A stretch of DNA of 64,000 bases from a virus (lineage: Duplodnaviria > Heunggongvirae > Uroviricota > Caudoviricetes): IMG/VR virus record IMGVR_UViG_3300025735_000005; one strand, 5' to 3'. The position numbers and the translations under genes were made by a program. Below the pieces are notes generated by a model. The model ran no database searches and was not told the origin of the DNA. It saw only the letters and a program-made list of their open reading frames with translations. Below are positions 13,951 to 44,693 of the stretch, one piece after another. The first letter of the stretch is position 1. Each line of letters starts with the position of its first letter.

Positions 13951-14026
13951 TGGCGGATCCGCTAGGGGTCGAACCTAGATTGCTGGATTTGGAGACCAGA
14001 GTCCTACCATTGGACGACGTACCCAA
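13951..14026 (-). tRNA. tRNA-Trp (anticodon CCA), 76 nt with encoded CCA end
   Basis: Minus-strand sequence GGGTACGTCGTCCAATGGTAGGACTCTGGTCTCCAAATCCAGCAATCTAGGTTCGACCCCTAGCGGATCCGCCA folds as cloverleaf: D-arm GTCC/AATGGTA/GGAC, anticodon loop CTCCAAA (U33, CCA, A37), T-arm CTAGG/TTCGACC/CCTAG; acceptor stem has one A.G mismatch and anticodon stem one T.T mismatch. Confidence 0.55.
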
Positions 14027-29279: not shown

Positions 29280-29782
29280 TAGAAGTTGAACCCTCTTGCC
29301 GTTGCCTTGCGTGCTACCCTGATTGGGTGTAGATACTCTGTAGCGTAACGAACGCCATCAGAGAAGTGTTCTACACCATCCTTCTTGTCGATGGTGGCAG
29401 TATTGGGGTTATTATCCACCCACTTAGTCCGCTCCATAGAGAGGATAAGGTTAGGACACTTAATAGGATCAAATAGCATACCTCCATGATGAAGCATGCC
29501 GTTGACAGCATTGACGCTGTCCACCATGGATGGTGCTTTATTGTGTGCCAAGCAGCGAATACCATGGCTTTCCAGAATGGCAAAGTCAGTACGCCCAACC
29601 ATAGCAGAAGTCTTGCGAGCTCTACCAGAAGGGTCTGGATAAGCAAAGATACGCCGCTTGCCGTTGTCGTAGCGCCCTTTGATTGCTACAGCCAACTGTT
29701 CTGTATCAGGATGTCCCATGAACTCATCAAGCCATTGCATCTGTTTGCCGCGATGCGCAAAGACACCAGAGGCTTGTATCAA
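29279..29782 (-). CDS. terminase large subunit, C-terminal nuclease portion (second exon/fragment)
   Basis: 167-aa ORF (track start is TTG; first ATG gives MQWLDEF... at ~29740) with RNase-H-like terminase nuclease features (IFAYPDPSG..., ILESHG, DGVEHFSDGVRYATEY); in-frame stop at 29801-29803 limits exon to <=29800. Confidence 0.55.
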   Translation of the reverse strand: MIQASGVFAHRGKQMQWLDEFMGHPDTEQLAVAIKGRYDNGKRRIFAYPDPSGRARKTSAMVGRTDFAILESHGIRCLAHNKAPSMVDSVNAVNGMLHHGGMLFDPIKCPNLILSMERTKWVDNNPNTATIDKKDGVEHFSDGVRYATEYLHPIRVARKATARGFNF

Positions 29783-30367
29783 ATTGTTCAGTAGATGGCG
29801 TTAACATCTACCCGACTATTGGAGAAGATATGTAGCAGCTTGTGCTAGATTATAGATACTGTCTTTAAAAGCCCCTAATCCTGTGTTGCAGTGTCCACAT
29901 AAAATACCACGGATGGTACCAGTTGTATGACAATGATCAACAACAGCAGCGTCGCCTGTATTATCCTGCCGACCTGCTCTAAAATGTACAGGATTACGAC
30001 ATATTGCGCAGCAACCGTCTTGCTGTTCTAAAATTGCATCGCGTTCATGAAGCTCTATCCCAAATTTACGGCGATAGTACCACTCAGCTTGCTTTTCCTT
30101 AGCGCATTGCTTGCAATAAGTCTGTCGGCCATCAGCACGTCTAGCGTGAGGGCCGAAATATTCGTAAGGCTTTTTAATTTTACAGTAAGTACAAATTTTC
30201 AATTTATATCTCCAAAGTCCGCTATATGTTACCATATAGATCAGACTATATCATCAGTTGCCTTTAGTGACTATTTCTCAAGTCCAGCACTGCCTGGCGC
30301 TTCCGTTACACTTGTAACGTACTCCCCTGCGGGATAGTCGTTGCACCTTCCTCTTACGAGGCTTGGC
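29783..30367 (-). mobile_element. intervening sequence splitting terminase large subunit (candidate group I intron carrying HNH ORF)
   Basis: Terminase ATPase ORF stops at 30368 and nuclease ORF resumes by 29800; the 585 nt between contain the HNH ORF flanked by hairpin-rich non-coding sequence (e.g. tcccgcagggga, cgttacaagtgtaacg). Confidence 0.45.
29816..30235 (-). CDS. HNH homing endonuclease
   Basis: 139 aa with CxxC...CxxC zinc knuckles and AVVDHCHTTGTIRGILCGHCN (HNH core). Confidence 0.8.
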   Translation of the reverse strand: MVTYSGLWRYKLKICTYCKIKKPYEYFGPHARRADGRQTYCKQCAKEKQAEWYYRRKFGIELHERDAILEQQDGCCAICRNPVHFRAGRQDNTGDAAVVDHCHTTGTIRGILCGHCNTGLGAFKDSIYNLAQAATYLLQ

Positions 30368-31288
30368 TCAGAGTTGTCCCATAAGGATATTCTCTGAATT
30401 CACCAGGTTTAGTATGTGGGCATACAGTTCACCCACGTTAAAGTCGATAGCTACATGCACATCCTCGTGTTCTCCCAGAGGCTCTAGCGTCTTGTTATGC
30501 TTAGCGCGTTCATAGGAGTAGAACACCATATTACCAGAGTCCATGAAGGACGCCATATATTCCGCAGCAAAGGCCCGTGGATCCATAGTACTCTTCAGCG
30601 CTACGATTTCTTCTGGGTCTAGAAAAGGAGAACCAGTATAGTCATAATGATAAGAGTTCCAGGTAGGGTCTTTCTCGTGGAAATGATGAAGCTCATGAAA
30701 GAAATCATAGCCATTAGGTGTAGAAGCAAAGACAGCACGACCAGGACTTCTAGCACCATAGCGACGTGCGTTTGCAGGAGACCAGCGGGTGCTGATGCAG
30801 GGTCGTACAATAGACTCCCAAGCAGCTTTTGCGCCAATACCCTTAGTGCAGGTGGTGACTTCGTCCCAGCCAACGAAATAATAGCCCTTACCGCGCATAC
30901 GCTGTACTGCTTCAAAAGACAGCAGGCGAAGTTCTACATTATTTGGGAGGACAAAGCGGCCTTCATCTTGGCTCGCCTTAATGGCAATTTCTTCCAGCCC
31001 CATATCCTGAGCCAGGATAGGGTAAAAGATGTCTGTAACCTGATCGTATGTCGGGGCAATAATACCTACACGTTTGTTAGGAACGTTTCTAGGTAACGCC
31101 ATAAGCTCATGCACTGCAGTTGCAGCACAGGCAGAGAGGAAGTATGATTTACCCCAGCCACGAGCACAGCATACAGACACAAAGCGGTGAGCTTGATCAA
31201 TAAAGAGATCTTCGTAAGCATCGCTCTGCCCGTAGTGGAGATCAATCACACCTGCAACTCCAAAGGGCAAGCTTCTTGGCCAGTACAA
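30368..31288 (-). CDS. terminase large subunit, N-terminal ATPase portion (first exon/fragment)
   Basis: 306 aa with Walker A CARGWGKS and Walker B YYFVGWDEV; ends with VAIDFNVGE resembling the first catalytic-Asp strand of the nuclease domain, then stops. Confidence 0.8.
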   Translation of the reverse strand: MYWPRSLPFGVAGVIDLHYGQSDAYEDLFIDQAHRFVSVCCARGWGKSYFLSACAATAVHELMALPRNVPNKRVGIIAPTYDQVTDIFYPILAQDMGLEEIAIKASQDEGRFVLPNNVELRLLSFEAVQRMRGKGYYFVGWDEVTTCTKGIGAKAAWESIVRPCISTRWSPANARRYGARSPGRAVFASTPNGYDFFHELHHFHEKDPTWNSYHYDYTGSPFLDPEEIVALKSTMDPRAFAAEYMASFMDSGNMVFYSYERAKHNKTLEPLGEHEDVHVAIDFNVGELYAHILNLVNSENILMGQL

Positions 31289-31540: not shown

Positions 31541-31836
31541 ACAGGGATCCTTGCCAGCGCAAGAGCCAGTGTGCGACAGGCGGATGGCGGAAGAGGAAGC
31601 TGCACAGTGATGCCTTCACCACGAACAGTAGCTGTAATAGCACCCTCATCATCTTCATTTACAGAGATATAGTCAGGGCATGATGTATTGGACATATCAG
31701 TCCAAGCTGCGAGATTCTTCATCAACAGTATTCCCATCAGTGTGATAAACTTCACCCTTTTTACGGGTGTTGATAATAAGCGGCGGAATAGAAGCCGTTT
31801 CCAGCACATTAGTTTCAGGTACACGACCATAGCCAT
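31537..31836 (-). CDS. hypothetical protein
   Basis: 99-aa ORF upstream of terminase. Confidence 0.3.
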   Translation of the reverse strand: MAMVVYLKLMCWKRLLFRRLLSTPVKRVKFITLMGILLMKNLAAWTDMSNTSCPDYISVNEDDEGAITATVRGEGITVQLPLPPSACRTLALALARIPV

Positions 31837-32143
31837 AACGCAACAGCTGTTCTGCGATCTTAATCTTTTGTTCAGTAAGCTTGATATAAAGCTCTGGCTT
31901 CCAGATGATCACACGACCAGTGTTGGGATTGAGTTCTACAGTAACACCATCACGAAGATCCTCTTCGCGCTTAATAGCGGCGGACAGTCGATGATGCTCA
32001 GTAACCAATTCACCAATGGGGTCATAACGAAGTTGTCTCAGTCGATCCTTAGAGCGCTCAGATCCTGCGTGGTAGCGACGTCCATCATAGAGTTCACCAT
32101 CACGAACAGGAGGCTGCTCAATGACTGCATTCTTAAGTGACAT
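31697..32143 (-). CDS. candidate terminase small subunit
   Basis: 148-aa ORF that is first gene after promoter motif/terminator junction and lies upstream of terminase large subunit; no diagnostic motif. Confidence 0.3.
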   Translation of the reverse strand: MSLKNAVIEQPPVRDGELYDGRRYHAGSERSKDRLRQLRYDPIGELVTEHHRLSAAIKREEDLRDGVTVELNPNTGRVIIWKPELYIKLTEQKIKIAEQLLRYGYGRVPETNVLETASIPPLIINTRKKGEVYHTDGNTVDEESRSLD

Positions 32144-32995: not shown

Positions 32996-33277
32996 TTAGC
33001 TTAGCTCTTTAATACGACGCTTCACAAAAGCCAGTCGGACAATATCCAGATGCTGTGTTTGTCCCTCTTGTGCGGCTTGGTAGGCTGTACTCCCGAAAGG
33101 AAATAAACTTTCACCTGCGTGTATTTCTAGATCTACCTCTACTGAGCAGTTGCCCCAAGTCTTTGCATTTTCGCAAAGACCACAACGTTTCATAGTCTCT
33201 TCATAAGGAACCGTGTAACCGGCGGCAAGGGCTTCAGCTAGATCTAGCCATTCTTTATAGAAGTCAAGGAGGTCCAT
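32996..33277 (-). CDS. paralog-family protein (1 repeat unit)
   Basis: 93 aa; unit pattern LxFYKxWL...GLCxNA..WGNCS...H...FPFG..Y....TQHL...RL.FV.RRI.EL. Confidence 0.5.
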   Translation of the reverse strand: MDLLDFYKEWLDLAEALAAGYTVPYEETMKRCGLCENAKTWGNCSVEVDLEIHAGESLFPFGSTAYQAAQEGQTQHLDIVRLAFVKRRIKELS

Positions 33278-33821
33278 CGGTCAATTCCTTAATACGGCGC
33301 TCAACAAAATCAATCCTATTTGGATTTATATTTTGTGTGCCATAATACCAGTCGTACTTGTACGCAACCTCTCCAAAAGGGTATATTTGATCACCAAAAT
33401 GATATTTGATGTCTGCTAGCACAGTAGCACCACAACCCATTTCTTCTGCATTAATACAAAGGCCAGCCGCCCTGACTGCATACGAAGGATTTTTGCTGTT
33501 AGCGTCCGCCAACCATGCTTCATAAAACTTAAGTAGCTCGAGCTCTGTTATACGTTTCCTAACAAAAGTTAAACGTTGACAATCTAGATGTTGAGTCCTT
33601 CTCGCATGATGATAATTATATCTAGTTTCACCGAAAGGATACTCTGGATCTTTTGTATGAGCAGCTAGATCATCGTATAGAGCATCGCTGCAGTTTCCCC
33701 AAACCTGCGCATTACTGCACAAACCATAATCTTCTAAGAAAAGCGAGTAAGGCACCGCTATACCGCTAGCGAGCGCTGTTGCGCGCTCAAGCCATGTTTT
33801 GTAAAACTCAAGCAAGTTCAT
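33264..33821 (-). CDS. paralog-family protein (2 repeat units)
   Basis: 185 aa containing two copies of the same ~90-aa unit. Confidence 0.5.
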   Translation of the reverse strand: MNLLEFYKTWLERATALASGIAVPYSLFLEDYGLCSNAQVWGNCSDALYDDLAAHTKDPEYPFGETRYNYHHARRTQHLDCQRLTFVRKRITELELLKFYEAWLADANSKNPSYAVRAAGLCINAEEMGCGATVLADIKYHFGDQIYPFGEVAYKYDWYYGTQNINPNRIDFVERRIKELTDGPP

Positions 33822-34080
33822 TGAGTTGTTCCCTCACCCACGCAAGACGCTTCGGATTTCTATGAGCAAATCCACCAATGGTTTCTCGTAGGTAATCATA
33901 ACCGCTTTCGTTGAAAGGATAGGTCTCTTTGAACTTAGGCATAGCCTTAAATACCTCAGGCGCGTACCTGGCGGCAACAAAGCACAAACCGCCGTGCTTT
34001 ATATTTTCTTTGAAGCTCTCAGGGTAACTTGCATCACCCTCAGCGGCTGCTAAGTAATCTTTAAAGAATTCACGAAGCAT
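33808..34080 (-). CDS. paralog-family protein (1 diverged unit)
   Basis: 90 aa, diverged version of unit (GGLC...YPF..G..Y....AHRNP.RLAWV). Confidence 0.45.
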   Translation of the reverse strand: MLREFFKDYLAAAEGDASYPESFKENIKHGGLCFVAARYAPEVFKAMPKFKETYPFNESGYDYLRETIGGFAHRNPKRLAWVREQLNELA

Positions 34081-34645
34081 ATAGGCTCTCCAATTTACAG
34101 CGGACCCAATCGAGCCGCGTTTGGTTCAAATGCTGTGTTTCTTTTGCCTTTGCGCGCATATACTCATGCATATCGTCATGAAAAGGTGCCGCCGTGGTGA
34201 TATCTAGATTTGCGAGCACATCAGGCCCGCCGTAGGTTTCGGCATTCATGCAGAGGCCACAGGTTCGCATCGTGCGTAGCCGCTCTTTAATAATCTTTGA
34301 GACATCACCACTATTCGCCATAGCCATTGCAATTTCGAGGTATTCCTCAAGAAATTGAATGGTCTTCAAACGAAGAATCTCGTTGGCAATCCAAGTCAGT
34401 CGCTGCTGATTTTCATGCTGTGTGCCTGTATGAGCCGCGCACCAATACTCAGCACCCGATGTGTTGAATGGCCACTGACTTTTTGTATGAAAACGCTTTA
34501 ATAGGTCATCACCACCACCGTATAGCACACAAAGACCATGTACACGAACGTCATCAGCAGGTGATGCAGGGGTAACGTAACAACCAGCATGCACCGCCTT
34601 GACATCTTTTAAGTACTTCTGAAGAAACTGCAAAAGGTTCGACAT
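34070..34645 (-). CDS. paralog-family protein (2 repeat units)
   Basis: 191 aa with two units (HGLCVLYGG...WPF...Y...TQHENQQRLTW; CGLCMNAETYGG...PF...TQHLNQTRLDWV). Confidence 0.5.
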   Translation of the reverse strand: MSNLLQFLQKYLKDVKAVHAGCYVTPASPADDVRVHGLCVLYGGGDDLLKRFHTKSQWPFNTSGAEYWCAAHTGTQHENQQRLTWIANEILRLKTIQFLEEYLEIAMAMANSGDVSKIIKERLRTMRTCGLCMNAETYGGPDVLANLDITTAAPFHDDMHEYMRAKAKETQHLNQTRLDWVRCKLESLYAS

Positions 34646-34781: not shown

Positions 34782-35219
34782 TCATTTTGCCAACTCAAAG
34801 AGTTGATCACCGTGTTTACTGTCTAATACAGTATCTTCAATCTTCCAGCGCAAAACGTTGAAGCCCCATGATCGCAGTGTCGTCACCACAAACAGTGTTT
34901 CGCGTTTGATCTGATACAAGCTCTTGTGACGTCCCGTGATAAATCCAGTTGGTTCTTTGTCTTTGTGCATTTCAAAAGTAGCGAGTTTCCAGTTGCTGAA
35001 AGCGTCTTCTATACGCTTACCAGCGAGTTCTGTCTCCGCATTTCTTTCAAAATTGACATGGGCTTCATAATAAAGTCGAGCTTCTCTCATTTCTTTACTC
35101 TCCTGTAGTTTATAATCGGCGGGCTGTGGAGTACATGCACACCCGCGCCACCACAACCAGGGCATGTCCACCACTGCAACCCATACAGTGTAGTTAGCAG
35201 AGAACCTGAGCCTTTGCAA
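34782..35219 (-). CDS. hypothetical protein
   Basis: 145-aa ORF (true start may be internal ATG). Confidence 0.3.
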   Translation of the reverse strand: MQRLRFSANYTVWVAVVDMPWLWWRGCACTPQPADYKLQESKEMREARLYYEAHVNFERNAETELAGKRIEDAFSNWKLATFEMHKDKEPTGFITGRHKSLYQIKRETLFVVTTLRSWGFNVLRWKIEDTVLDSKHGDQLFELAK

Positions 35220-35222
35220 ACG

Positions 35223-35672
35223 CTACAGATCATACACAACCGGCTGTATATGGGTGAATTCCTCTTCAATAATCTTTTCTACAACAGACCATTCGCCATT
35301 CGCTAAGCCACAACCGATACGTGGCAGTGCTATAGCTGCTGTAAAAGGAGCACATTGTTTATTAACAGTTTCACAGCAAAGCCGCAGTGCGGCGTAGCTA
35401 ATATAGCGACGTGTCCTATCTCTACCATACATGCGTTGTGTGATTGCATTGATGATCATCTTATCGCTGCCATGCGCAATAATAATCTGACCTAAATACA
35501 AACGACCACCCTGGTCATTATAGACCTTGTAATATCTTTGATAAGCTTCAGACCACCTGTCTCGTATAGCTTTCGCTACACCAGATTGCATTACACCTTG
35601 TGCGTTGCAACCATGCATGATATATGGCTCTTCGCAATCCAACAGATTGCCTTTCTTGTAGATAATCTTCAT
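35223..35672 (-). CDS. macro-domain protein (ADP-ribose binding / ADP-ribosyl hydrolase)
   Basis: 149 aa: KGNLLD...HGCNAQGVMQSGVAKAI and PRIGCGLANGEW match macro-domain signature blocks. Confidence 0.65.
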   Translation of the reverse strand: MKIIYKKGNLLDCEEPYIMHGCNAQGVMQSGVAKAIRDRWSEAYQRYYKVYNDQGGRLYLGQIIIAHGSDKMIINAITQRMYGRDRTRRYISYAALRLCCETVNKQCAPFTAAIALPRIGCGLANGEWSVVEKIIEEEFTHIQPVVYDL

Positions 35673-35741
35673 TAAGGTAATGCCCTTTACAAGCCTGACT
35701 TAACCGCACACGATTATTTATTGATAATCGCTTCTCTCCTG

Positions 35742-36197
35742 TCACCACCCCTTCCACCATTGATTGCCGGGAGTCTGCATATCTGCGTAGAAGTTTTGAA
35801 TAACAGATTCAGGAACTTTATGTTCTTCAGGCCGCTTTGAATTGCGCTCTAACAAAGTTTTAAGTGACAGATCAAACAGTTTGACGGTGGGTTGAATCCG
35901 CAGCTCATTATAAAAGGGTTCTACATTACGCCAATGAATGCCGGTATCACTCAGCAGAACTTCTTTGTACCAGTGGTAGCCGGCTCGAAGAGCTCCCAGC
36001 ATGGCTGGTGTAACCACACGAGATTTATTGCTGTAATGCAATGGGTGCTCTTGGTACGCTTGCCTTGATCCAAAGATGGCTTCTCTAAACTTGTCACGCT
36101 CCAGCCTAAGTACATAAGGCCTTGTTGCACAGTATTCATCTGCCCATGTGCTTTTACCAGAGCCTGGGCATCCAACTGTGACAATAAACTTATTCAT
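35742..36197 (-). CDS. polynucleotide 5'-kinase (T4 Pnk kinase-domain-like)
   Basis: 151 aa: TVGCPGSGKSTWA P-loop and LLERNSKR closely parallel T4 Pnk (TIGCPGSGKSTWA ... LVKRNSKRG). Confidence 0.75.
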   Translation of the reverse strand: MNKFIVTVGCPGSGKSTWADEYCATRPYVLRLERDKFREAIFGSRQAYQEHPLHYSNKSRVVTPAMLGALRAGYHWYKEVLLSDTGIHWRNVEPFYNELRIQPTVKLFDLSLKTLLERNSKRPEEHKVPESVIQNFYADMQTPGNQWWKGW

Positions 36198-36378
36198 CTG
36201 TCAAATACTCCTCAAGAAAACCATCTTCTATAAGCTTTGCAGTGAATGTCTCTCGTGTCCAGCCTTCTCCGTACATTTGCTCTCTAAATTTTTCACTGAA
36301 ATGATCTTTAATCATTTCATCAAGGATATCGTCATCTATAACAAGCGTCTGAACACCCATTATTGAGCTTCTCTCCAT
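36190..36378 (-). CDS. hypothetical small acidic protein
   Basis: 62-aa ORF. Confidence 0.3.
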   Translation of the reverse strand: MERSSIMGVQTLVIDDDILDEMIKDHFSEKFREQMYGEGWTRETFTAKLIEDGFLEEYLTDE

Positions 36379-36560
36379 GCTTTTTCACGACTAAAACGTG
36401 TGCTGCCAACTGAACCTTTACGCATACGCTTCTTTACAGCAATGCCGAAAACCTCTGGGTATTTGTCTCTACCACAAAGAACGCAGCAGAGTGCGTCACC
36501 CATACCGCCTCCGCCATCAAGGACACGCGCATGGATGCCCATAAAACACAAAATGTTCAT
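36360..36560 (-). CDS. hypothetical small protein
   Basis: 66-aa ORF. Confidence 0.25.
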   Translation of the reverse strand: MNILCFMGIHARVLDGGGGMGDALCCVLCGRDKYPEVFGIAVKKRMRKGSVGSTRFSREKAWREAQ

Positions 36561-36569
36561 ATTTTAATC

Positions 36570-37100
36570 CTATAGTAGACTTTTCAAATCGACAGTACCG
36601 CGATACTCTAGAGGGATCTGATCCCAGACCATACTGAACAGCGCTCGATTGCCACGTGTAAGCACAGCCATCAGTTGTACTTTTTCAGGAAAGTAAACCC
36701 TGCTGAAACCGGGGTCACGTCCGACGATCGTGCGCGTATTGCTGTAGAGGTCTGCTAGCTTGATGGTATGAACTTCATCTTGAGCAGCGCCCAGACGATC
36801 CCTTGACAAAGCTTTACGAGTTGCTCGGTTACCCTTCTCCATATCCGAAAGCGCCATAACATATGACGTCACAACAGGACCAAATACAACCCTAAGCTCA
36901 GCTTCAGTCACATTGCAATCTTCAACAACATCGTGGAGGAGAGCCGCCTGCTGCATTTCTACAGAGCCGCCGAAGTTGCGCACCAGCATCATCACTTCAA
37001 TAGGGTGCACAATATAGGGTTCGCCCGTGTACTTGCGCTCCTGATCAACGGCGCAATGCGCAGCAGTGGCGTAAACAAGAGCACGATTAACTTCATTCAT
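36570..37100 (-). CDS. HD-domain phosphohydrolase, SpoT/Mesh1-like (p)ppGpp-hydrolase family
   Basis: Track ORF 36570..37226 in a frame overlapping the upstream gene; likely start at internal ATG (MNEVNRALVYATAAH...). Motifs YIVHPIEVMMLV and AALLHDVVED match the HD signature of RelA/SpoT hydrolase domains. Confidence 0.6.
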   Translation of the reverse strand: MNEVNRALVYATAAHCAVDQERKYTGEPYIVHPIEVMMLVRNFGGSVEMQQAALLHDVVEDCNVTEAELRVVFGPVVTSYVMALSDMEKGNRATRKALSRDRLGAAQDEVHTIKLADLYSNTRTIVGRDPGFSRVYFPEKVQLMAVLTRGNRALFSMVWDQIPLEYRGTVDLKSLL

Positions 37101-37887
37101 AATTAGTTTCCTTACAATACGCCGAATTCGTCGTGGACTTGTTTGCCTTAGTGAGAAAGTACCGCTTAGCGATATCCGAAATAGGTTTACCCAAATCTTT
37201 ATGAGTAAACCCACTTGCGGCAACACGATCAGACTCTTCTTTCATAACGTCTGCAAACACCCAACGAAGGTAGTGTCCGATATTACGCAGCTCAAACGCA
37301 TGCTCTTGCAAGAATATCTGCAAACCCTGCTCAAGCCGATTTTCAGTAACGATCGCAGCGATCAAATCATCCTTGCGCGCAATAGCTTCTACGTCAACTT
37401 CAACAAGTTTACTTACCTTTGAGACGCTGTGCTTTTCGCCTTTTACCTTAAACCAGTATCTGCTATCTGAATACTCAGTATCGACGGGCTTCCATACAAT
37501 ACCTTCGCCAATTCCACTAACATCAGCTAGCTGTTTAGCGACAGGGCATTCCGCTTCTACAGCGGAGGTATATTCTACCAGCCTGTTTTGCACAAGTTCG
37601 GGCTGATTGAAATCAATTTCAACCATCCAATTTGGAAAATCATGAATACAATAAATATTATAATCACTAAATGCAATTAGACGTAGGTTCCTAATATCTA
37701 ACCATTCGTCGCCAGCGCGTACTGCAAACACCACAAAGTGTTTAGCGGAAAGATGGTTAATACCGACGCCTCTTTGAATGCCAGGTCCGCACCATTCGCC
37801 AAAAAGAGTGTATTGCTTAGACTTGCTGTATATACTATGCACCAAGTCGAATACTGCAGGTAGGACGCTGGTCTCTAGAGTACTCAT
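37093..37887 (-). CDS. RNA ligase (Rnl2-like), C-terminal portion as annotated; motif I lies upstream of the ATG
   Basis: Motif IV EGIVWKP and motif V WFKVKGEKH in the 264-aa ORF; the same frame continues upstream to 38097 and encodes motif I GTVKLHGTNAG (cf T4 Rnl2 EKIHGTNF) without any in-frame ATG/GTG/TTG. Confidence 0.55.
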   Translation of the reverse strand: MSTLETSVLPAVFDLVHSIYSKSKQYTLFGEWCGPGIQRGVGINHLSAKHFVVFAVRAGDEWLDIRNLRLIAFSDYNIYCIHDFPNWMVEIDFNQPELVQNRLVEYTSAVEAECPVAKQLADVSGIGEGIVWKPVDTEYSDSRYWFKVKGEKHSVSKVSKLVEVDVEAIARKDDLIAAIVTENRLEQGLQIFLQEHAFELRNIGHYLRWVFADVMKEESDRVAASGFTHKDLGKPISDIAKRYFLTKANKSTTNSAYCKETNYE

Positions 37888-38104
37888 ATACGCGCAAAAG
37901 CCAGCATTATCTTGCGATTGAGTAATAACTCGATTTCGCGAAAGGTAGGTGTATGTGGAGCCCTGATGAATACCGGCGTTTGTACCATGTAGCTTTACTG
38001 TCCCATTAAACCAAAGCTTTGGTACAGGTTGCTCTTTGAAAGTACAATGATCACGAATGGCCCTAACTACATGCCGGTATTGTTCAATAGATGGAACTTA
38101 TTCA

Positions 38105-38770
38105 TTACCAACCTTCCATGGGAAACTCGAGATAGACCTGCGTTTGCGCCCTAAGTTCATTTGTAATAGTTTTGACCCTATCAGTGTCGCGGCTGACACG
38201 ACCGAACCAACGCCAACCAGAACCAACAGCTTTTGTACCGCTATGAAATGTTTGCCAGTCAAATTCAATTAATTGGCGATCTGGAGCTTCCCATTGTGCT
38301 AGCTTGTTTTCCTCTAGCATCTGCTTAATGCGAGTATCCCAGTCACGATATATCAACCCATTGACTTTAGGCAATTCACATTCACCCAAGGCAAATGAAG
38401 TAGGAGCTAAATGCGCATTAACCAACCCCATAATATGCCTGCTGTGGTAGGCAGGTGTATCGTAATCAGGTTGACCAGCTGTGAGAAAATGCTGGCCTAC
38501 CGGAATAGGCGGGCGTGGAACGTCATCGTGGTGATACCCTGGAATCCCAGGATACCATCCAGACATAAGCATATGAACCCTGCTATCAAATACACACGGC
38601 ACTGATAGCCAATCTTGAGGCATAGATGAGATAAAAGAGCGCGTAATAGGACCGCCCTTTTCATACGCAAATTCAAGATCTGAATTGAAGAACATAGGTT
38701 CATTCTTCACATCATCACAATATTTTGCAAAAGAATTAAGTAGATATGCACGACTGTTGAAGCTGTACAT
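38105..38770 (-). CDS. hypothetical protein (weak HxD...H 2OG-oxygenase-like pattern)
   Basis: 221 aa; YHHDD...H spacing reminiscent of Fe/2OG oxygenases but not diagnostic. Confidence 0.25.
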   Translation of the reverse strand: MYSFNSRAYLLNSFAKYCDDVKNEPMFFNSDLEFAYEKGGPITRSFISSMPQDWLSVPCVFDSRVHMLMSGWYPGIPGYHHDDVPRPPIPVGQHFLTAGQPDYDTPAYHSRHIMGLVNAHLAPTSFALGECELPKVNGLIYRDWDTRIKQMLEENKLAQWEAPDRQLIEFDWQTFHSGTKAVGSGWRWFGRVSRDTDRVKTITNELRAQTQVYLEFPMEGW

Positions 38771-39131
38771 CTATATTCTCCGTGAAATTTATACCCACTC
38801 TGTTTTTAAATAAACTTGCAATACTTTGCTGTTTTGCTAAGTATAAATCGTATAAACTTAATTCACTCTTAATGTACGATTTCGGAAGATTAAATATAAC
38901 CTGCCGATATCTTACTTTAATATCAACAGCCTCAAATATACTGACTACAAAGGAGTCATCATAAAGATTTTCTAGTATTTTGATAGGAAATACATAAAAG
39001 AGATCTTCTAATGACGCAAATCCGCAGAATTCTGCATCGTAATCAATGATACCTAAATCAGGTGAAATCAAATCGCCAGGATAGGTCACCCCATGAGATC
39101 TGGAAAGGTTTTGCAAGATTACGTGGCCCAT
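38736..39131 (-). CDS. hypothetical protein
   Basis: 131-aa ORF. Confidence 0.3.
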   Translation of the reverse strand: MGHVILQNLSRSHGVTYPGDLISPDLGIIDYDAEFCGFASLEDLFYVFPIKILENLYDDSFVVSIFEAVDIKVRYRQVIFNLPKSYIKSELSLYDLYLAKQQSIASLFKNRVGINFTENIDVQLQQSCIST

Positions 39132-39197
39132 ATCACGTCCTCGTCAGGGGCCACGATCTGCATGTCCTTTAAGATGTATTCTATATACCTCGGACAT

Positions 39198-40559
39198 TTA
39201 GAAATCCTTTGCACGATTGCGGACTTCATCGAAAGTATGCTTAACAAGCAGTTCGCCATCTCGCCACACAGGCTGCATGAGATCAACAGCATGATGCGAG
39301 AGATGATCAGTGCGAATAGCACGATATTGACCGTCGTATTCGATAACAGATTGGCGGCCAGCCTTGCTTGCCTTTTGGATGCTGCCAGTAGGCGTCTTCT
39401 GAACATCCCGCCAGCCATCGCCGTAATTAACAGCATTCATCTTCATGGCAAAGCTGAGTGTATCGCGATCGACTTTCTGAAGAAGACCACCGCCCATGCC
39501 AAATACGATATTATCCAGCGAGAAGCCGGCATGAATGATATTGCGGATAAGTTCCTCAATAGAATCCTCATTCATACCATCGCCTTGAATAACACGTACG
39601 TGCGAGTCCAGAACACGGTATCCCTTACTGTTTACAGTACCACCAAAAGCTTCCCACAACTTGTGCATGATATCGATCGATACCGTCGTAGGGTTGCCGC
39701 TATCAGGCCGAACAACAAGAGTGCCATTGCGTTCAAGAATCTCTTCCTTGAGACTATAGCACCAAGCCTTACGTACGGCACGTTCCAGGTCATAGCTATC
39801 CGAAACGATCGATACAAGACCATCAGGAAAACTCTTGAGAATGTGATGATACGCATTGTATTCGCGTTCACGTCCCCAGCTAGTAATAGTGCTGTGCTCG
39901 GCCGCAGGGATATTGAAGCCGGGCATACCAGCCTTGTAATAGTGCTGCGCATGGAGAATGCCAGCGAGGGTATCCGTGCTGCTGAAATTTAGCAAATGCG
40001 CCATGCCACCCAGAGCAGCGCTTTCCCGGCTGCTGGCACCACGAGCACCCATATCGTGCAGTTTGAATTCGATCTGGCCGTCAGGGTCATCACTGCTGAT
40101 CAACAGACCGCGATAAATGATCTTACGGCATTTTGCCGACAGCGTAGCAACCGTAGAAGGATACCATGTTGTGCGCGTCAAATCCGTGTCGATGAAGTTA
40201 GGCAGCCACGGGAAGCGTGGATCTGTGTTGACAACCTCAAATAGCGGTGTACCACAAGGAACTGCAATCCCTTCAGGCAAGGCGCGGATTTCCAGTGGTA
40301 GATAGCCCAGATTTTCCAGATCACGAAAGCCCTTATCATTAAAAGGGATGCCGTGGGCCGCGAGCACATCTGCGCATTCTTCGATCATATCAAGGTCTGG
40401 CGCATCCATACTGTCCATCAACGTAGGTTGCAGACCAAAGAAGATCATGCGATGGCTGAAATTGTTGATGCGTGCCTCGCCGTAGACAGAAGCGTACTTC
40501 ATTTCCGGCGGATACTGCATAAAGTGCGAGTGCTTATAGCTATCAACATCAAAAATCAT
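39198..40559 (-). CDS. nadV: nicotinamide phosphoribosyltransferase (NAMPT/NadV)
   Basis: Start taken at internal ATG (MIFDVDSYKHSHFMQYPP, cf human NAMPT ATDSYKVTHYKQYPP); FGMGGGLLQKVDRDT matches NAMPT GSGGGLLQK block; length ~453 aa. Confidence 0.8.
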   Translation of the reverse strand: MIFDVDSYKHSHFMQYPPEMKYASVYGEARINNFSHRMIFFGLQPTLMDSMDAPDLDMIEECADVLAAHGIPFNDKGFRDLENLGYLPLEIRALPEGIAVPCGTPLFEVVNTDPRFPWLPNFIDTDLTRTTWYPSTVATLSAKCRKIIYRGLLISSDDPDGQIEFKLHDMGARGASSRESAALGGMAHLLNFSSTDTLAGILHAQHYYKAGMPGFNIPAAEHSTITSWGREREYNAYHHILKSFPDGLVSIVSDSYDLERAVRKAWCYSLKEEILERNGTLVVRPDSGNPTTVSIDIMHKLWEAFGGTVNSKGYRVLDSHVRVIQGDGMNEDSIEELIRNIIHAGFSLDNIVFGMGGGLLQKVDRDTLSFAMKMNAVNYGDGWRDVQKTPTGSIQKASKAGRQSVIEYDGQYRAIRTDHLSHHAVDLMQPVWRDGELLVKHTFDEVRNRAKDF

Positions 40560-40560
40560 T

Positions 40561-41544
40561 TCAAAACCCCTTGTAAAAAGCCATGTGGTAGTGGTCTTCA
40601 AAGTATTGTGTTGGATGAACTGCGTGCTCATGCATCCAGCCAGCCCAGGATGCATCATCCTTACCCTGAGGCGCTGGCATGTCTACGTTGTCAGGAATTT
40701 CTATGTAAGCGGCATGAGTGATGATACGCCCTCGCAAGCTGCGTTCAGGATCATCAAAGATATGCCAACCAACAATGTATTGCGGATCGATGAGAAGTCC
40801 TGTCTCTTCCTCGACTTCTCTAAGCATACCTCTTTCGATACGCTCGTCAGGTTCAAGAAATCCTCCTGGCGCTGCATATAGGTTTTTACCTACAGCACCG
40901 CCGCGCTTGATAAGAAGTCTTTTGTCACGCCAGCGGATAATACCATCAACTGTGACAAAAGGACCAGTCCCATATTTAAGGCGATCCTTATCTACACCTT
41001 CCTTATAAGACAAGAGCTCCTTGAATGTATCCGTCATCTTGAAATGCTCAAGGAACGTCAAGGTATTTGGTGTGATGTAGGGAGCAGGGATATGAGGCAG
41101 ACGCCGAAGGTACACCTCACGAACATCGCTGGCGGAAAAGGTGCCGTAACTACTGCTAATCTGAATGCTTTCCCACGATGGAAACATATTCAGATAGTAG
41201 CTGGATTTGTCTTTGCCGTAGCCGGTCAGATAGATTATATCTTCAGGCTTGGAGCAAGAGCTGATGAGATTTTCAACGTTTTGCAGCCAATCCGCGTCGC
41301 TGTACGGGTAGTCATCAAGCGGAAGAACCTCCAACCGACCCAGTGCGTGCTCATAAGCAAAGGCGTTACTGATCAGCGATCGACGTTCTTCATATGTGAA
41401 AGGGTTCTTCGGATCTCGGGCTTTATTTGCAGAGCCAACAAGCACAATCAGCCTATCAACCTTTGAAAGAGCTTCCGAAATGACATGCGCGTGACCGATA
41501 TGCATCGGCTGAAAGCGCCCGATAAAAACGCCTATTTTGCTCAT
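40561..41544 (-). CDS. natV: bifunctional NMN adenylyltransferase / Nudix ADP-ribose pyrophosphatase (NatV/NadM-Nudix)
   Basis: N-terminal GRFQPMHIGH ((H/T)xGH nucleotidyltransferase motif); C-terminal Nudix box GGFLEPDERIERGMLREVEEETG. Confidence 0.8.
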   Translation of the reverse strand: MSKIGVFIGRFQPMHIGHAHVISEALSKVDRLIVLVGSANKARDPKNPFTYEERRSLISNAFAYEHALGRLEVLPLDDYPYSDADWLQNVENLISSCSKPEDIIYLTGYGKDKSSYYLNMFPSWESIQISSSYGTFSASDVREVYLRRLPHIPAPYITPNTLTFLEHFKMTDTFKELLSYKEGVDKDRLKYGTGPFVTVDGIIRWRDKRLLIKRGGAVGKNLYAAPGGFLEPDERIERGMLREVEEETGLLIDPQYIVGWHIFDDPERSLRGRIITHAAYIEIPDNVDMPAPQGKDDASWAGWMHEHAVHPTQYFEDHYHMAFYKGF

Positions 41545-41831
41545 AAAATCTCCGGGATGTGAACCAGCGAATGCATGGTGAATTCGTAGCGGTTGAAAAG
41601 GCTAGCGAGCGTAAATGCTGCATTTGCCTTCTGCGTCTCTTCGGCTGCGTGCGCCTCTGTCATTCGGTAACTCTCGCTGTCATGACCACGTTGATCGGCA
41701 TGAAGAGCGGCCTGCCGTAGTAAACTATTTGCAGAATCACGGTGTTTATCAGCGATACTCCGCAAGGCGCTCACTACGAGTTCTAACTCATTCTCCGTCA
41801 AATCGCGCGATGTCGTCATAAGGTTTTCCAA
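41541..41831 (-). CDS. hypothetical protein
   Basis: 96-aa ORF. Confidence 0.3.
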   Translation of the reverse strand: MENLMTTSRDLTENELELVVSALRSIADKHRDSANSLLRQAALHADQRGHDSESYRMTEAHAAEETQKANAAFTLASLFNRYEFTMHSLVHIPEIL

Positions 41832-42014
41832 TCACGGATGATTATCAACAAAATCAGCCATCAGTATGAAATCCAGGGTGTCTGCACAAATTTTAAACTC
41901 TGCACAAGTTTTTAAATCAGCCTCGTCATCGTCAGCTAGATTCAGATAAAAGGCCACAACTTTATCATAAAAGGCTTCATTAGTCACCGAATATCTCCAA
42001 AAGATGCTCCCCAC
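41832..42014 (-). CDS. hypothetical small acidic protein
   Basis: 60-aa ORF. Confidence 0.25.
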   Translation of the reverse strand: MGSIFWRYSVTNEAFYDKVVAFYLNLADDDEADLKTCAEFKICADTLDFILMADFVDNHP

Positions 42015-42037
42015 CGCTAGGCAGGGAGCTTCCTAGA

Positions 42038-42433
42038 TTACTCTGACAGCTCAGCCAGTTGGCGATCGAGGTCTTCGTCCGTCATCTTGCCGATCCTGTC
42101 GTCTGCGCGCTTGGCCTTTTCATCCAGCAAACGCATGCGATGCGTACGACGATCCATTGCAGCAGCTGCCTGGTTCTTCTCGTTGAGCTTCACCGCAATG
42201 ATATGCTTGACAACTTCAAGACGCAGCTTTGCAATACGCACCGCAGGATCTTCACCTTGCGTAACCAGAGACTCGCCTTCAGAGTCCTTAATGAAGCGAT
42301 TAATCTGGCGTCCGACAGCATCCAGACTGCAAGCACCGGTCAGCGGCAGATCCCAAAGCTGTTCAGTGCTGAGGCTGCCCTTTTGGCTTTCAAAGCGGAA
42401 CTTGCTGCGGGTTGCATTTTCAAAAATGTTCAT
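42038..42433 (-). CDS. hypothetical protein
   Basis: 131-aa ORF. Confidence 0.3.
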   Translation of the reverse strand: MNIFENATRSKFRFESQKGSLSTEQLWDLPLTGACSLDAVGRQINRFIKDSEGESLVTQGEDPAVRIAKLRLEVVKHIIAVKLNEKNQAAAAMDRRTHRMRLLDEKAKRADDRIGKMTDEDLDRQLAELSE

Positions 42434-42441
42434 TGTAAATC

Positions 42442-42720
42442 CTATCTAGCTATGCTAAGGGTTAAGAGAATAAGACTTGTGAATATTACTGTGCCGAAGA
42501 CAATAGCTGTAAATTCATCGGTACCTCGTCCATTCTGAGAGCCACGTGGTCTATATTCCCACCCAGCGCGGTAATAGGTACCGTACTCTCCGTACGAGTA
42601 CCTCACCCTTCTCTCAGCCTTCCCTATAACTACACCATTCATAGTTGGCCTTGGCACAAATACAAAACAATTATGCCAACCGTCTGGTGGAGTTTTTCGC
42701 TTAAAACTGATATTCATCAA
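42442..42720 (-). CDS. small tail-anchored membrane protein
   Basis: 92 aa with C-terminal hydrophobic segment AIVFGTVIFTSLILLTLSI. Confidence 0.3.
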   Translation of the reverse strand: MMNISFKRKTPPDGWHNCFVFVPRPTMNGVVIGKAERRVRYSYGEYGTYYRAGWEYRPRGSQNGRGTDEFTAIVFGTVIFTSLILLTLSIAR

Positions 42721-44693
42721 AACATCAATTCATAGGCGCGGTTGTTGTCGACAATAACGGTAACAGTGTCACCACGTGCCCTTGTGAAACCAACACCTGA
42801 GAGCTGAGTTTCAGAGACTTCACATTTGGTGCGAGCGCCGAGTACTTCAAACACCTTACGATGTTCCTGAAGCTCCGGTCGGAGATCCTCGTTATAGAAA
42901 CCTCGCACAGGATCAGGGTTCTTACAACCCTTCAGCATGAAGAAGAGGTGCTTTGAGCCGAAGCCGCCTGCGCCATCCCAATGATTCGGGGAAAGTAGCA
43001 CAGTCTCTACGTCCACCAGAGTATCAGTAGAAAGGCCCCACTTCGTCGCAGAAGCACTAACAGACGGAAGGTTGGATTCAAATTTTACAGGCCTTCCGTC
43101 CTTCACTGTAACCACGACAGCGTTGACGCGCCCACCATTAGGTACTGCATTATTGTATGTATACGTCGTCACCACGCCTTCGAATTCTACATCGATATTA
43201 AAGCCAACGTCTACACTTTCGCGTCGTGTAAAATTATGTACGCTAAAGCCGTAGACACCGTCTTGCAAGCTGTTAAACGCCATATTCTCGACAGCGTCAC
43301 GTTTATGGCCGCCACCGGCGTTCATATCAACGTCTAGGATACCCATCTTGTTTCGGAAATAGATGTGCTCTCCCGAAGGCGCATAACAATGGAGATCGAG
43401 ATCATCAAAGTTGAACCACGACAACGACACACGGAAGAAAGTATCGGTGCGACCGCCCGCAGCTTTTACACGCTCCTTAACGCTGTCCTTCACATCGCCA
43501 TCGTAGGACCATGAAAAGTCATTCTGCCAATTGAACAGACGTCCGGTGCTTTCATGCTGTGGCGCCGTAATTGACACGAAATTGCCCAAGTGCTTATTGG
43601 TCAACTTCAGCTTCAATGAAGAAGCTTGTGGAAGAATAGTGTTGATGAATTGATCTGGATCAATCTTCTGTGCATGTGCCAAATCCGGAGCCTTCGCGGG
43701 CTTAACATCCAGAGCGAGCAGGTCTTCAATACCACCGCGCATCTTACCTTGCACGGCGTTGTCGACGAAGAGCACATCGTTCACAGACAAATCTTCAACG
43801 GTAGCAAAGCGTCGTTTAATCGACTGCTCCAAACCCAGTGACTCTAGCGTAGCGTTTGCCTGCTGCACCATTTTCGTAGTGATCGGAGCCGACGAACGAC
43901 GGAAGTTGCGAGGAGCCATTACAGCATCGTATGCTCGCAAGCAGGCATCAAGATCAAGTCCTTTGGAAAGATTGATCAAAAGCGTGCCGAAAGCATTGTT
44001 GCGGATCCTTGCAACGGGTGTATCACTTTGGCTCCAGGCGAATGCTTCCTTGTCGGCAGAAGCATCATAAGCCAGTTTGAAATCTCTGAACTTACGGACA
44101 GCGTTTTCGTATTCAGCGCCTCGGTAGAGTTCATTATTATTGATGAGATCGAGCGCTGTATCGAATGCTTCAATCGTCAGCTCACGAAGACCGCGTTCGA
44201 ACACTTGTGCTTTCGTGTTAAAATCGCCTCGCGCTTTATCGGCGTCTTTTGAATAATGCCGCTGAGCGATAACACCATAGAAGTGCGACCATTGCCTATT
44301 TGTATGAGCATCGTAGTTATGACGTTCGCCATACCAATTCTGCTTAGTTCTGTAAACGCTCTTGATTGGCGCTTGCAGGACAAGATCGCTCATTCGTTCA
44401 GCAACAGTCTCGTACGGCTCTGGCAGTGCGCCCAGGCCGCCCCATACTGTCATACGCTCGCCGTTATCATCAAAGGCAATAACGCCGCCCAGATTCTTGA
44501 TAAAGTTTCGGCAGGTATGACAGGTATGCTCGGTCTCTTTGCGATACAGAGGATCTGTTCCGGCAGGAAAGGCTGCCAAGTACTTCGCATACAAGTCGTC
44601 GAGATCAACCACGAAAAGCTCATTTCGCTTCATGACGTCAAAACGAGCGATAACGGCTTTTGCAAACTTATCAAACATGTTAATAATCCTCAC
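42717..44693 (-). CDS. large hypothetical protein (658 aa, GTG start in track; first ATG 44676-44678)
   Basis: Long uninterrupted ORF, no motif I can confidently assign. Confidence 0.5.
   Translation of the reverse strand: MRIINMFDKFAKAVIARFDVMKRNELFVVDLDDLYAKYLAAFPAGTDPLYRKETEHTCHTCRNFIKNLGGVIAFDDNGERMTVWGGLGALPEPYETVAERMSDLVLQAPIKSVYRTKQNWYGERHNYDAHTNRQWSHFYGVIAQRHYSKDADKARGDFNTKAQVFERGLRELTIEAFDTALDLINNNELYRGAEYENAVRKFRDFKLAYDASADKEAFAWSQSDTPVARIRNNAFGTLLINLSKGLDLDACLRAYDAVMAPRNFRRSSAPITTKMVQQANATLESLGLEQSIKRRFATVEDLSVNDVLFVDNAVQGKMRGGIEDLLALDVKPAKAPDLAHAQKIDPDQFINTILPQASSLKLKLTNKHLGNFVSITAPQHESTGRLFNWQNDFSWSYDGDVKDSVKERVKAAGGRTDTFFRVSLSWFNFDDLDLHCYAPSGEHIYFRNKMGILDVDMNAGGGHKRDAVENMAFNSLQDGVYGFSVHNFTRRESVDVGFNIDVEFEGVVTTYTYNNAVPNGGRVNAVVVTVKDGRPVKFESNLPSVSASATKWGLSTDTLVDVETVLLSPNHWDGAGGFGSKHLFFMLKGCKNPDPVRGFYNEDLRPELQEHRKVFEVLGARTKCEVSETQLSGVGFTRARGDTVTVIVDNNRAYELMF

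Follow-up and report, generated by a model that had tools for sequence, protein, structure and literature searches.

The gene block and its layout

The DNA considered here is a 64,000-nt stretch (hereafter the window) of the tailed-phage (Caudoviricetes) record IMGVR_UViG_3300025735_000005 in IMG/VR, and its subject is a block of genes on the minus strand at 34782-42014. In this block, natV and nadV, which encode predicted enzymes of nicotinamide adenine dinucleotide (NAD+) reconstitution, lie together with genes for an RNA ligase, a polynucleotide 5'-kinase, a SpoT/Mesh1-type HD hydrolase, a macro-domain protein and several small open reading frames (ORFs) (Table 1). An earlier sequence-only reading had assigned six domains, namely NAMPT, nicotinamide mononucleotide (NMN) adenylyltransferase (NMNAT) fused to Nudix, macro, T4-Pnk-type kinase, PF09414 ligase and SpoT-type HD; all six were borne out by profile and structure searches at the same positions, and every motif that had been quoted was found in the translations. 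We lean towards reading the block as an accessory mosaic, in which a module of the NARP2 type stands beside a putative RNA-end-repair module.

The ORF list of the window places every long ORF on the minus strand. From 42014 to 34782 the order is orf60, orf96, natV, nadV, orf131, orf221, RNA ligase, HD, orf66, orf62, kinase, macro and orf145, with intergenic spacing of -35 to +69 nt. A terminator-like hairpin (42029-42006; 10-bp stem, 7 GC pairs) lies just 5' of the block, and a 136-nt gap with a promoter-like site at 34781-34753 lies 3' of it. The tight spacing together with the upstream hairpin suggests that the block is a single transcription unit, probably opened by orf60. The GC content is 0.44-0.48 throughout the region and leaves no compositional trace of recent transfer. 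An Rfam scan of the island found no RNA element, including NAD+, phosphoribosyl pyrophosphate (PRPP) and ppGpp riboswitches, at E <0.1.

Table 1. Features of the gene block in the order of transcription
Feature	Coordinates	Strand	Description
orf60	41832..42014	minus	small orphan ORF; first after the hairpin 42006-42029; no homolog in 4.2 Mb of fetched loci
orf96	41541..41831	minus	small orphan; stop overlaps natV start by 4 nt; no family match and no homolog in 4.2 Mb of fetched loci
natV (NadM-type)	40561..41544	minus	predicted bifunctional NMN adenylyltransferase fused to a Nudix (ADP-ribose pyrophosphatase-type) domain
nadV	39198..40559	minus	predicted nicotinamide phosphoribosyltransferase, Nampt clade; true start MIFDVDSYK
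orf131	38736..39131	minus	orphan; no Pfam, NCBIfam or PADLOC match
orf221	38105..38770	minus	2-oxoglutarate (2OG)-Fe(II)-oxygenase-fold; conserved phage family phrog_1843
RNA ligase	37093..38105	minus	PF09414 (Rnl2-superfamily); open frame 37093-38097; apparent 1-nt deletion after codon 4
HD hydrolase	36570..37100	minus	176 aa; stand-alone SpoT/Mesh1 type, small-alarmone-hydrolase architecture
orf66	36360..36560	minus	small orphan; no family match and no homolog in fetched loci
orf62	36190..36378	minus	small acidic orphan; overlaps kinase start by 8 nt; no family match and no homolog in fetched loci
kinase	35742..36197	minus	polynucleotide 5'-kinase, 151 aa; T4 Pnkp kinase domain only
macro	35223..35672	minus	149 aa; T4 Tk.4 / BT1257 / Poa1p-Adpp type ('A1pp phosphatase')
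orf145	34782..35219	minus	17-member family of ~102-aa proteins, core from Met44; motifs RLYYEAH and VLRWKIEDTVLDS

The natV-nadV pair

The product of natV matched CTP_transf_like (1.5e-12) and NUDIX (4.4e-13) in Pfam, phrog_395 (5.7e-51) and the NCBIfam bifunctional NMNAT/Nudix model PRK05379 (9e-76, under the equivalog cut-offs). Its residues 4-321 align with the Synechocystis bifunctional enzyme (PDB 2qjo, 3.9e-55), and its translation shows the GRFQPMHIGH motif as well as the Nudix-box motif GGFLEPDERIERGMLREVEEETGL. The start of nadV follows the natV stop by 1 nt. NadV matched NAPRTase (1.2e-50), NAMPT_N (3.2e-11) and phrog_448 (1.8e-148), scored 539 bits on NF006629 (cut-off 405) and, over residues 2-450, matches NAMPT structures end to end (PDB 7yqo, 2e-127); its assignment to the Nampt clade rests on these profile and structure scores together with the partner genes.

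A Pfam sweep that took in 49 further ORFs of the window found large and small subunits of ribonucleotide reductase (RNR), thioredoxin, Band_7, a flap endonuclease, a primase-helicase, an ATP-dependent DNA ligase (PF01068), the portal protein and homing endonucleases. No Pribosyltran or Pribosyl_synth match, as expected of a Prs-like Adps, was found in the Pfam-scanned ORFs, with a few small ORFs and two giant ORFs lying outside the scan. Adjacent genes, Nampt-clade scores and no Adps in the scanned ORFs agree with the sequence definition of NARP2, and natV and nadV are thus predicted to be the NARP2-type pair that the sequence-only reading had proposed. By extension from Vibrio phage KVP40, NadV would convert nicotinamide and PRPP into NMN and the adenylyltransferase domain of NatV would convert NMN into NAD+, offsetting NAD+-depleting defences, and the Nudix domain of NatV probably splits ADP-ribose (ADPR) into AMP and ribose-5-phosphate.

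The Nampt and Nmnat of KVP40 form an experimentally established NARP2 that overcomes several NAD+-depleting systems, and NARP2, found in ~1% of phages, overproduces NAD+ even without a defence system (bioRxiv 10.1101/2024.02.11.579819). The RES-type defence aRES is cancelled by NARP2 alone (bioRxiv 10.64898/2026.01.28.702374). The window pair resembles that of KVP40 in having an adjacent Nampt-clade enzyme and NMNAT-Nudix without Adps, with the same domain architecture and catalytic motifs. It differs in lying in another phage lineage (~79 kb, with a major capsid protein 55% identical to that of EBPR siphovirus 1) and in its order, natV then nadV, inside a longer operon with genes of RNA-repair type, and it is known here from sequence.

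The overproduction of NAD+ by NARP2 without any defence would also suit a phage that boosts NAD+ and nucleotide pools and tidies RNA and nucleotide by-products for its own replication, whatever the immunity of the host. The RNR subunits, thioredoxin and DNA ligase of the window fit such ordinary auxiliary metabolism, as does the presence of NadV in 22-33% of medium and jumbo phages (PMC9503650). However, the phage DNA ligase is ATP-dependent and leaves no obvious NAD+ sink, the block is absent from the syntenic slot of a related phage (see below), as arms-race cargo would be, and the anti-defence activity of NARP2 has been demonstrated (10.1101/2024.02.11.579819; 10.64898/2026.01.28.702374). 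We consider auxiliary metabolism alone a very unlikely explanation of the block.

Neighbours of natV-nadV in IMG/VR

Gene neighbourhoods were surveyed by taking 80 IMG/VR loci (±10 kb) for each of three anchors (homologs of the ligase, NadV and HD), searching them with the window proteins and dereplicating. The 71 loci anchored on NadV, all of which hold nadV or Namat as the anchor, contained natV in 68 cases, macro in 8 and HD in 8, with ligase and kinase in none. Among the 71 ligase-anchored loci, natV occurred in 4, nadV or Namat in 7, macro in 3, and HD and kinase in 1 each, and the 68 HD-anchored loci held natV in 2 and nadV in 1, with macro, ligase and kinase in none. The natV-nadV link is near-universal, in effect obligatory.

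A macro gene lies within 10 kb of natV-nadV in 8/71 loci versus 0/131 controls without nadV (Fisher p = 1.8e-4). Six of these eight macros are within 1.5 kb on the same strand, for example in the orders natV-macro-nadV (L143) and nadV-macro (L140, L121), and the macro stands beside NadV or Namat in all three ligase-anchored loci that contain one. Locus L045 is a contiguous natV-macro-nadV-ligase array, and L027 is a Prs-like-macro-Namat operon, the published layout of NARP1-AP. The association of macro with NARP is therefore real and concerns a minority of loci. For the SpoT-like HD, the corresponding figures are 8/71 loci within 10 kb of nadV versus 1/71 ligase loci (p = 0.03); HD is present in all six of the closest NadV relatives, in orders that include natV-HD-nadV (L094) and HD-natV-nadV (L095), and its association with NARP is suggestive. 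Two broader linkages were rejected, that of HD with NadV in general, seen from the HD side in only 1/68 loci, and that of the ligase with NadV, which is asymmetric (7/71 from the ligase side versus 0/71 from the NadV side).

Recurrent macro and SpoT-like HD genes in NARP2 operons are not described in the literature searched, and their recurrence suggests that macro and HD are helpers of NAD+ reconstitution. Other NARP2 operons carry further extras, including nucleoside 2-deoxyribosyltransferase-like genes (L132, L143), a NadR-like CTP_transf+AAA_28 gene (L121), a radical SAM and R2K ATP-grasp pair (L132) and a UDP-glucose dehydrogenase-like gene (L140).

The macro-domain protein

The macro protein matched Pfam Macro (7e-10) and phrog_335, annotated 'phosphatase' (5e-42). 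Its closest solved relatives are BT1257 (1.9e-14) and SCO6735 (1.9e-10), followed by DarG, Poa1p and TARG1; the PDB entries matched were 2fg1, 5e3b, 5m31 and 6lfu, and the match to the Poa1p-type structure 6lfu reached 6.3e-6. It is 35.6% identical (1.4e-13) to the macro of the Adps-macro-Namat operon in L027, 28-43% identical to the macros of NARP2 loci, and 25.7% identical (E 2.8e-8) to T4 Tk.4, which is annotated 'phosphatase; contains A1pp phosphatase motif'. We know of no established function for T4 Tk.4. Like the window macro, members of the T4 Tk.4/BT1257/SCO6735 family are stand-alone proteins of ~150 aa, whereas the window macro, unlike the gene in the T4 tk-vs region, adjoins a kinase downstream of NARP2. 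The family is carried by 1,399-2,789 phage records, and in Mydovirus a macro homolog lies ~600 bp upstream of the ligase homolog.

An anti-DarT role had been proposed for this protein, and DarG is indeed its best NCBIfam and PADLOC model. The match to the DarG model NF048014 nevertheless amounts to 49.8 bits versus a cut-off of 250 and covers positions 1-140 of 338, and the DarT-binding domain at the C-terminus of DarG is missing. When aligned to 5m31 by HMMER, the window protein has 'AITQR' opposite DarG 'FPTKK', so that Q occupies what we take to be the position of the catalytic lysine (K80 in T. aquaticus DarG, K84 in TARG1); BT1257 and SCO6735 likewise have Q there. The case for a DarT antidote is accordingly weak.

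In NARP1 operons, the Poa1p-like phage macro Adpp converts ADPR-1''-phosphate (ADPR-1''P) to ADPR (bioRxiv 10.64898/2026.01.28.702374). Because the window macro belongs to the broad family of Adpp and similar macros are enriched in natV-nadV neighbourhoods, it is most likely a phosphatase for soluble ADPR derivatives, acting for example on ADPR-1''-phosphate, and would be a helper of NAD+ recycling; this is favoured over the removal of ADP-ribose from DNA. NARP1-AP (Adps-Adpp-Namat) of Vibrio phage Gary has a Poa1p-like macro of the same broad family, the Gary protein itself being outside the comparison. There, however, the partner is NARP1, whereas the window partner is NARP2, which makes no direct use of ADP-ribose. 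The window macro and nadV, which are on the same strand and probably share a transcript, are separated by 3.5 kb and seven genes, a greater distance than the <=2 genes from a NARP operon by which Adpp is detected in published work.

The kinase, the ligase and RNA-end repair

The kinase matched AAA_33 (2.6e-14) and phrog_505 (positions 1-142 of 295 covered) and aligns to residues 1-144 of T4 Pnkp (301 aa; PDB 1ly1/1ltq, 1.5e-16), with the GCPGSGKS, RD..R (ERDKFR) and RNSKR motifs aligned with those of T4. The protein ends at residue 151 and has no C-terminal DxDxT 3'-phosphatase domain. Neither a D.DGT motif nor an HxT...HxT pattern was found in the scanned window ORFs, and the Pfam sweep and motif scan of window ORFs revealed no HAD, 2H, KptA, sirtuin or RtcB. 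Since no 3'-phosphatase or cyclic-phosphodiesterase family appears in the scanned ORFs, T4-style healing of 2',3'-cyclic phosphate ends would be incomplete and, judged by sequence, is not recognisably encoded in the window.

The ligase matched PF09414 (1e-15) and phrog_548 (3e-59), scored 26.4 bits on TIGR02307 versus a cut-off of 197, and matched T4 Rnl2 (PDB 2hvq) at only 2.8e-4. Its nucleotidyltransferase motifs I (KxHGxN), III, IIIa, IV and V are all intact; K35, G100, W102, F124, E198, G199, K217 and K219 do not vary among 37 ligase homologs including that of the window, and E101 hardly does. By these scores the enzyme is 'Rnl2-like' at the superfamily level only and is placed in a separate PF09414 subfamily. 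With T4 Pnkp and Rnl1/Rnl2, the window thus shares a T4-type 5'-kinase domain and a ligase of the Rnl2 superfamily that has these five motifs, while it differs from T4 in having no 3'-phosphatase domain, another ligase subfamily and a ligase frameshifted near its start.

The frameshift is visible at the junction with orf221. The open frame of the ligase is directly preceded by a TAA at 38098-38100, and no in-frame ATG, GTG or TTG occurs before Met85 (37887), which lies on the 3' side of the lysine in KLHGTN; an ORF begun at a canonical start codon can therefore be no longer than 37093-37887, which encodes 264 aa without the motif I lysine and is the form recorded by both the gene caller and the database cluster P0001. 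A further ATG, at 38105-38103, lies behind the Shine-Dalgarno-like sequence GGAAGG and overlaps the stop of orf221 (TAATG). From this ATG the reading is ATG AAT AAG TTC, and the frame is then one base out. The N-termini of ligase homologs read MKELIKFPSIEQF and MKLFPSIEQF, versus MNKF and, across the junction, PSIEQY in the window, and one C added in TTCC(C)A would give MNKFPSIEQY. The frame is otherwise undecayed, and the junction pattern was not found in JGI metagenome contigs. The frameshift is either a real and recent inactivating deletion or a base lost in the assembly. Programmed frameshifting was rejected, as the shift lies at codon 4 and ATG AAT AAG TTC C offers no slippery heptamer of the X XXY YYZ form. 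Initiation at an ATT, codon 4 in the open frame, was rejected too, since this codon is not preceded by a Shine-Dalgarno sequence and its use would cost the protein its conserved FPS residues. The earlier description of an Rnl2-like ligase consequently holds for the PF09414 superfamily and the motifs but fails at the equivalog level to T4 Rnl2 and for an intact start.

T4 Pnkp and Rnl1 counter PrrC. The sequence-only reading had extended this logic to the whole block, as a stack of independent counter-defences with NadV/NatV against NAD+ depleters, Pnk and Rnl against PrrC/RloC, macro against DarT, HD against alarmone or signalling-nucleotide defences, and the orphans as new anti-defence proteins. 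All of the domain families are present, the block is accessory and lies in a variable slot, DarG is the top model of the macro, and toxSAS toxins are neutralised by phage small alarmone hydrolases (SAHs) (PMC7229694). Against this, the Pnk is without the phosphatase domain needed for 2',3'-cyclic phosphate ends, no other phosphoesterase family occurs in the scanned window ORFs and the ligase is frameshifted as assembled, so that the proposed tRNA-healing pair is incomplete; the macro departs from DarG in score, catalytic position and domain content; and orf221 is a conserved oxygenase-fold protein also present in the related phage. A stacked toolkit of this kind is rather unlikely.

A different way to join the two halves of the block is a coherent NAD+-dependent RNA repair of the fungal and plant Trl1-Tpt1-Poa1p type. 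Kinase and ligase would join RNA and leave a 2'-phosphate, a 2'-phosphotransferase of the host or of an unrecognised kind would remove it with NAD+, the macro would clear ADP-ribose-1''-phosphate, NadV/NatV would restore NAD+, and HD would open or remove the 3' phosphate. Poa1p is the closest functionally characterised macro, and nadV or Namat lies within 10 kb of the ligase subfamily in 7/71 loci, including the contiguous natV-macro-nadV-rnl of L045. However, no KptA/Tpt1, sirtuin, 2H phosphoesterase or HxT...HxT was found in the scanned window ORFs, orf131 and orf145 show no ADP-ribosyltransferase (ART) or 2H fold, and the ligase occurs in 0/71 NadV loci. To our knowledge, Rnl2-superfamily ligases, which seal 3'-OH/5'-P nicks, have no need of a 2'-phosphate, which also counts against such a pathway.

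A KptA/2H/Macro wing of viral RNA repair was described by Iyer et al. 2022 (PMC9503650), and the V5/Mydo NAD+-utilising repair neighbourhoods (PMC9503650) hold ligase and macro homologs within ~1 kb. These sirtuin/KptA neighbourhoods resemble the window in clustering a ligase, a nucleotide kinase, phosphoesterases and NAD+-linked enzymes, and in Mydovirus phages homologs of the window ligase, macro and HD lie within ~7 kb. In contrast to them, the window showed no sirtuin, KptA, cREC, MazG or 2H gene. On balance, we judge a Trl1-type pathway improbable indeed.

Returning to the mosaic that we favour, its second module would be one of RNA-end repair, made up of the PF09414 ligase and the kinase-only Pnk, with HD translationally coupled to the ligase. 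The frameshift means that this module may be crippled, or that the assembly lost a base. Would-be alternative end-healing partners, not present in the window, were seen in other contigs: a T4 Rnl1-type ligase immediately upstream of the PF09414 ligase in a NARP2-bearing contig (L056, 8805-11011), and a calcineurin-like phosphoesterase 1.6 kb downstream of the ligase in L045 (12613-13449).

The SpoT/Mesh1-type hydrolase

The start of the HD gene overlaps the ligase stop by 8 nt. The protein matched HD_4 (3.3e-16) and spoT_relA TIGR00691 (4e-21), the latter in the hydrolase part only, and no synthetase domain is present. Its solved relatives in the PDB are Lmo0812, Rel/SpoT hydrolase domains, MESH1 and small alarmone hydrolases, and H32, H56-D57, E60-D61, K114 and D117 are invariant. 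The SAHs of the Salmonella phages PVP-SE1 and SSU5 (PMC7229694) and metazoan MESH1 are, like the window protein, single-domain RelA/SpoT-type enzymes with HD and ED diads. Unlike these enzymes, the window HD is translationally coupled to an RNA ligase and has relatives that sit inside natV-nadV operons.

Three roles are compatible with these data. By analogy with phage SAHs, which neutralise all toxSAS toxins tested (PMC7229694) and whose action on them includes tRNA CCA de-pyrophosphorylation (PMC7229694; 10.1101/2021.04.30.441581), HD could be a small alarmone hydrolase against toxSAS, including de-pyrophosphorylation of the tRNA CCA end. By analogy with MESH1, which is an NADPH phosphatase (bioRxiv 10.1101/325266), it could be a Mesh1-like NADP(H) or ribose-phosphate phosphatase that feeds the NAD pool. 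Finally, it could supply the absent RNA 3'-end phosphoesterase for the adjoining ligase. In the mosaic reading, HD would be this absent phosphoesterase, acting also on the 3'-pyrophosphate that toxSAS puts on tRNA CCA, or an alarmone/NADP(H) phosphohydrolase. The presence of a kinase-only Pnk near an HD hydrolase hints at alternative healing of RNA 3' ends.

In a so far undescribed, extended form of NARP2, a Tk.4/Adpp-type macro and a Mesh1/SpoT-type HD would have been recruited to natV-nadV, returning non-canonical products of NAD+ breakdown or storage to NAD+ synthesis. Candidate substrates would be ADPR-1''-phosphate from RES-type NAD+ phosphorylases, and NADP(H) or other ribose-2'/3'-phosphorylated adenine nucleotides, which would return by way of the Nudix domain of NatV, PRPP and NadV. 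On this view, the window would hold a dispersed four-enzyme module of which L045, L143, L094 and L095 are compact versions. We hold this extension to be doubtful.

A mosaic in a hypervariable slot

The island occupies a slot of ~9.9 kb between two anchor genes, orf131b (42038-42433) and orf148 (31697-32143). In a related phage (L005-L008), whose ligase is 60% identical, thioredoxin, Band_7, DUF8224, orf131b, orf148 and the terminase large subunit (TerL) are shared in the same order, and the same slot measures 1.6 kb with six small ORFs only. No natV, nadV, orf131, HD, kinase, macro, orf145 or paralog array was found in the 15-21 kb around this slot, while orf221 and the ligase are kept elsewhere, upstream of DUF8224. 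The accessory nature claimed for the block is consequently upheld for most of it, which the relative lacks in this slot, and not for orf221 and the ligase, which the relative has.

The window comes from a 79-kb metagenomic contig, and the major capsid protein of its phage is also 39% identical to that of roseophage DSS3_VP1. Megablast of the island against 50,697 phage records gave no match, and single-protein scans of IMG/VR returned only distant ligase relatives.

Considered together, the NARP2 pair, the census and the slot incline us, with modest confidence, to the reading that the block is no new system but a mosaic, made up of widely shuffled auxiliary genes of phages and placed in a hypervariable slot of this novel tailed phage. 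Several points weigh against it. Every enzymatic step is drawn from homology, and the ligase frameshift is known from one assembly only. The ligase subfamily has a Pnk-like kinase nearby in only 1/71 loci; the pairing of ligase and kinase looks particular to the window phage and may be coincidental. The macro is not adjacent to nadV but 3.5 kb and seven genes downstream, most of the 1,399-2,789 phage records with its family are without NARP, and NARP2 alone already defeats aRES, so that a phosphatase helper is not required; from the placement of the Mydovirus homolog near the ligase, an RNA-linked role of the macro is equally possible. For HD, the link is one-directional, nadV being present in 1/68 HD-anchored loci, and the p-value is modest.

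NAD+ depletion is central to bacterial immunity, and NAD+ reconstitution by phages is an active field (NARP1, NARP2, NARP1-AP, NARP3), to which the locus contributes a NARP2 pair from a phage lineage not sampled before. If macro and HD are indeed helpers, then NARP2, like NARP1, would be upgraded against non-canonical NAD+ cleavage, and the widespread T4 Tk.4 and phage SAH families would gain a biochemical context. Each of the families is already known in phages, so that the locus serves well as an example but is not a system of a new kind, and the connection of NAD+, ADP-ribose and RNA repair is itself known (Iyer et al. 2022, PMC9503650). The basic picture is unchanged, that of an island assembled from known parts.

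orf221 and the small ORFs

For orf221, 1116 homologs were found, in phages that include Mosigvirus and those of Aeromonas and Stenotrophomonas; the 120 best show 60-69% identity. Its AlphaFold model (pLDDT, the predicted local distance difference test score, 90) adopts a predicted double-stranded beta-helix fold. The family has invariant H80, H81, D82, D83, H176, R187 and R191 and a nearly invariant S193, a pattern compatible with a putative HxD...H plus RxS site. None of the oxygenase models in Pfam matches orf221, and a BFVD search returned only uncharacterised or PhyH-like viral proteins. The sequence-only reading had listed it as an unassigned gene and a prime anti-defence candidate; being widely conserved and also present in the related phage, it is neither an orphan nor specific to the island. 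Identity with T4 e.4 was rejected, as the T4 e-tRNA region has no homolog, though Mosigvirus has one. In Stenotrophomonas phage S72 (L010, 6005-7922), an orf221-family gene lies ~0.8 kb from a SpoT-like ppGpp pyrophosphohydrolase gene; in the window the two families are two genes apart.

For orf131, tblastn against 50,697 phage records gave nothing, and 1.84 billion cluster representatives yielded only orf131 itself and a weak repeat match in a 4099-aa protein. A 131-aa/221-aa gene pair in L253 was considered as homologs of orf131 and orf221 and rejected, as there is no similarity and the equal lengths are coincidental. orf145 has a generic ferredoxin-like fold, and its family is without conserved neighbours. 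It was considered as a half-size 2H phosphoesterase on account of an EAHVT motif and rejected, the fold being a generic ferredoxin-like beta-alpha-beta-beta-alpha-beta with one conserved His. By tblastn, a 63-kb phage contig (L253/L254) resembles orf145 residues 2-143, including the N-terminal 43 that gene callers omit; direct translation of the matching L253 stretch has stop codons, so that the true start of the orf145 family is uncertain.

Other features of the window

Directly downstream of the island, a tandem paralog array (32996-34645, minus strand) consists of four overlapping ORFs with six copies of a ~90-aa domain (phrog_2510), which had no homolog in the related phage or in the 4.2 Mb of fetched loci. 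Upstream, a 658-aa DUF8224/phrog_1735 protein (42717-44693) and orf131b (phrog_2018) recur <=few kb upstream of natV-nadV in the larger unrelated contigs L096, L091, L114 and L141, and this linkage to NARP2 may be more than chance.

The sole tRNA of the window is a tRNA-Trp (CCA) at 13951-14024 on the minus strand. Giant ORFs at 2813-12691 (3292 aa) and 17916-22571 (1551 aa), also on the minus strand, lie in the structural region of this poorly sampled lineage. TerL is split on the minus strand into an N-terminal ATPase ORF (30368-31288) and a C-terminal ORF (29279-29782), whereas that of the related phage is intact (452 aa); the two parts are divided by a group I intron (RF00028, 30222-30450, 87.5 bits) that carries an Endonuclease VII/HNH homing-endonuclease ORF (29816-30235).

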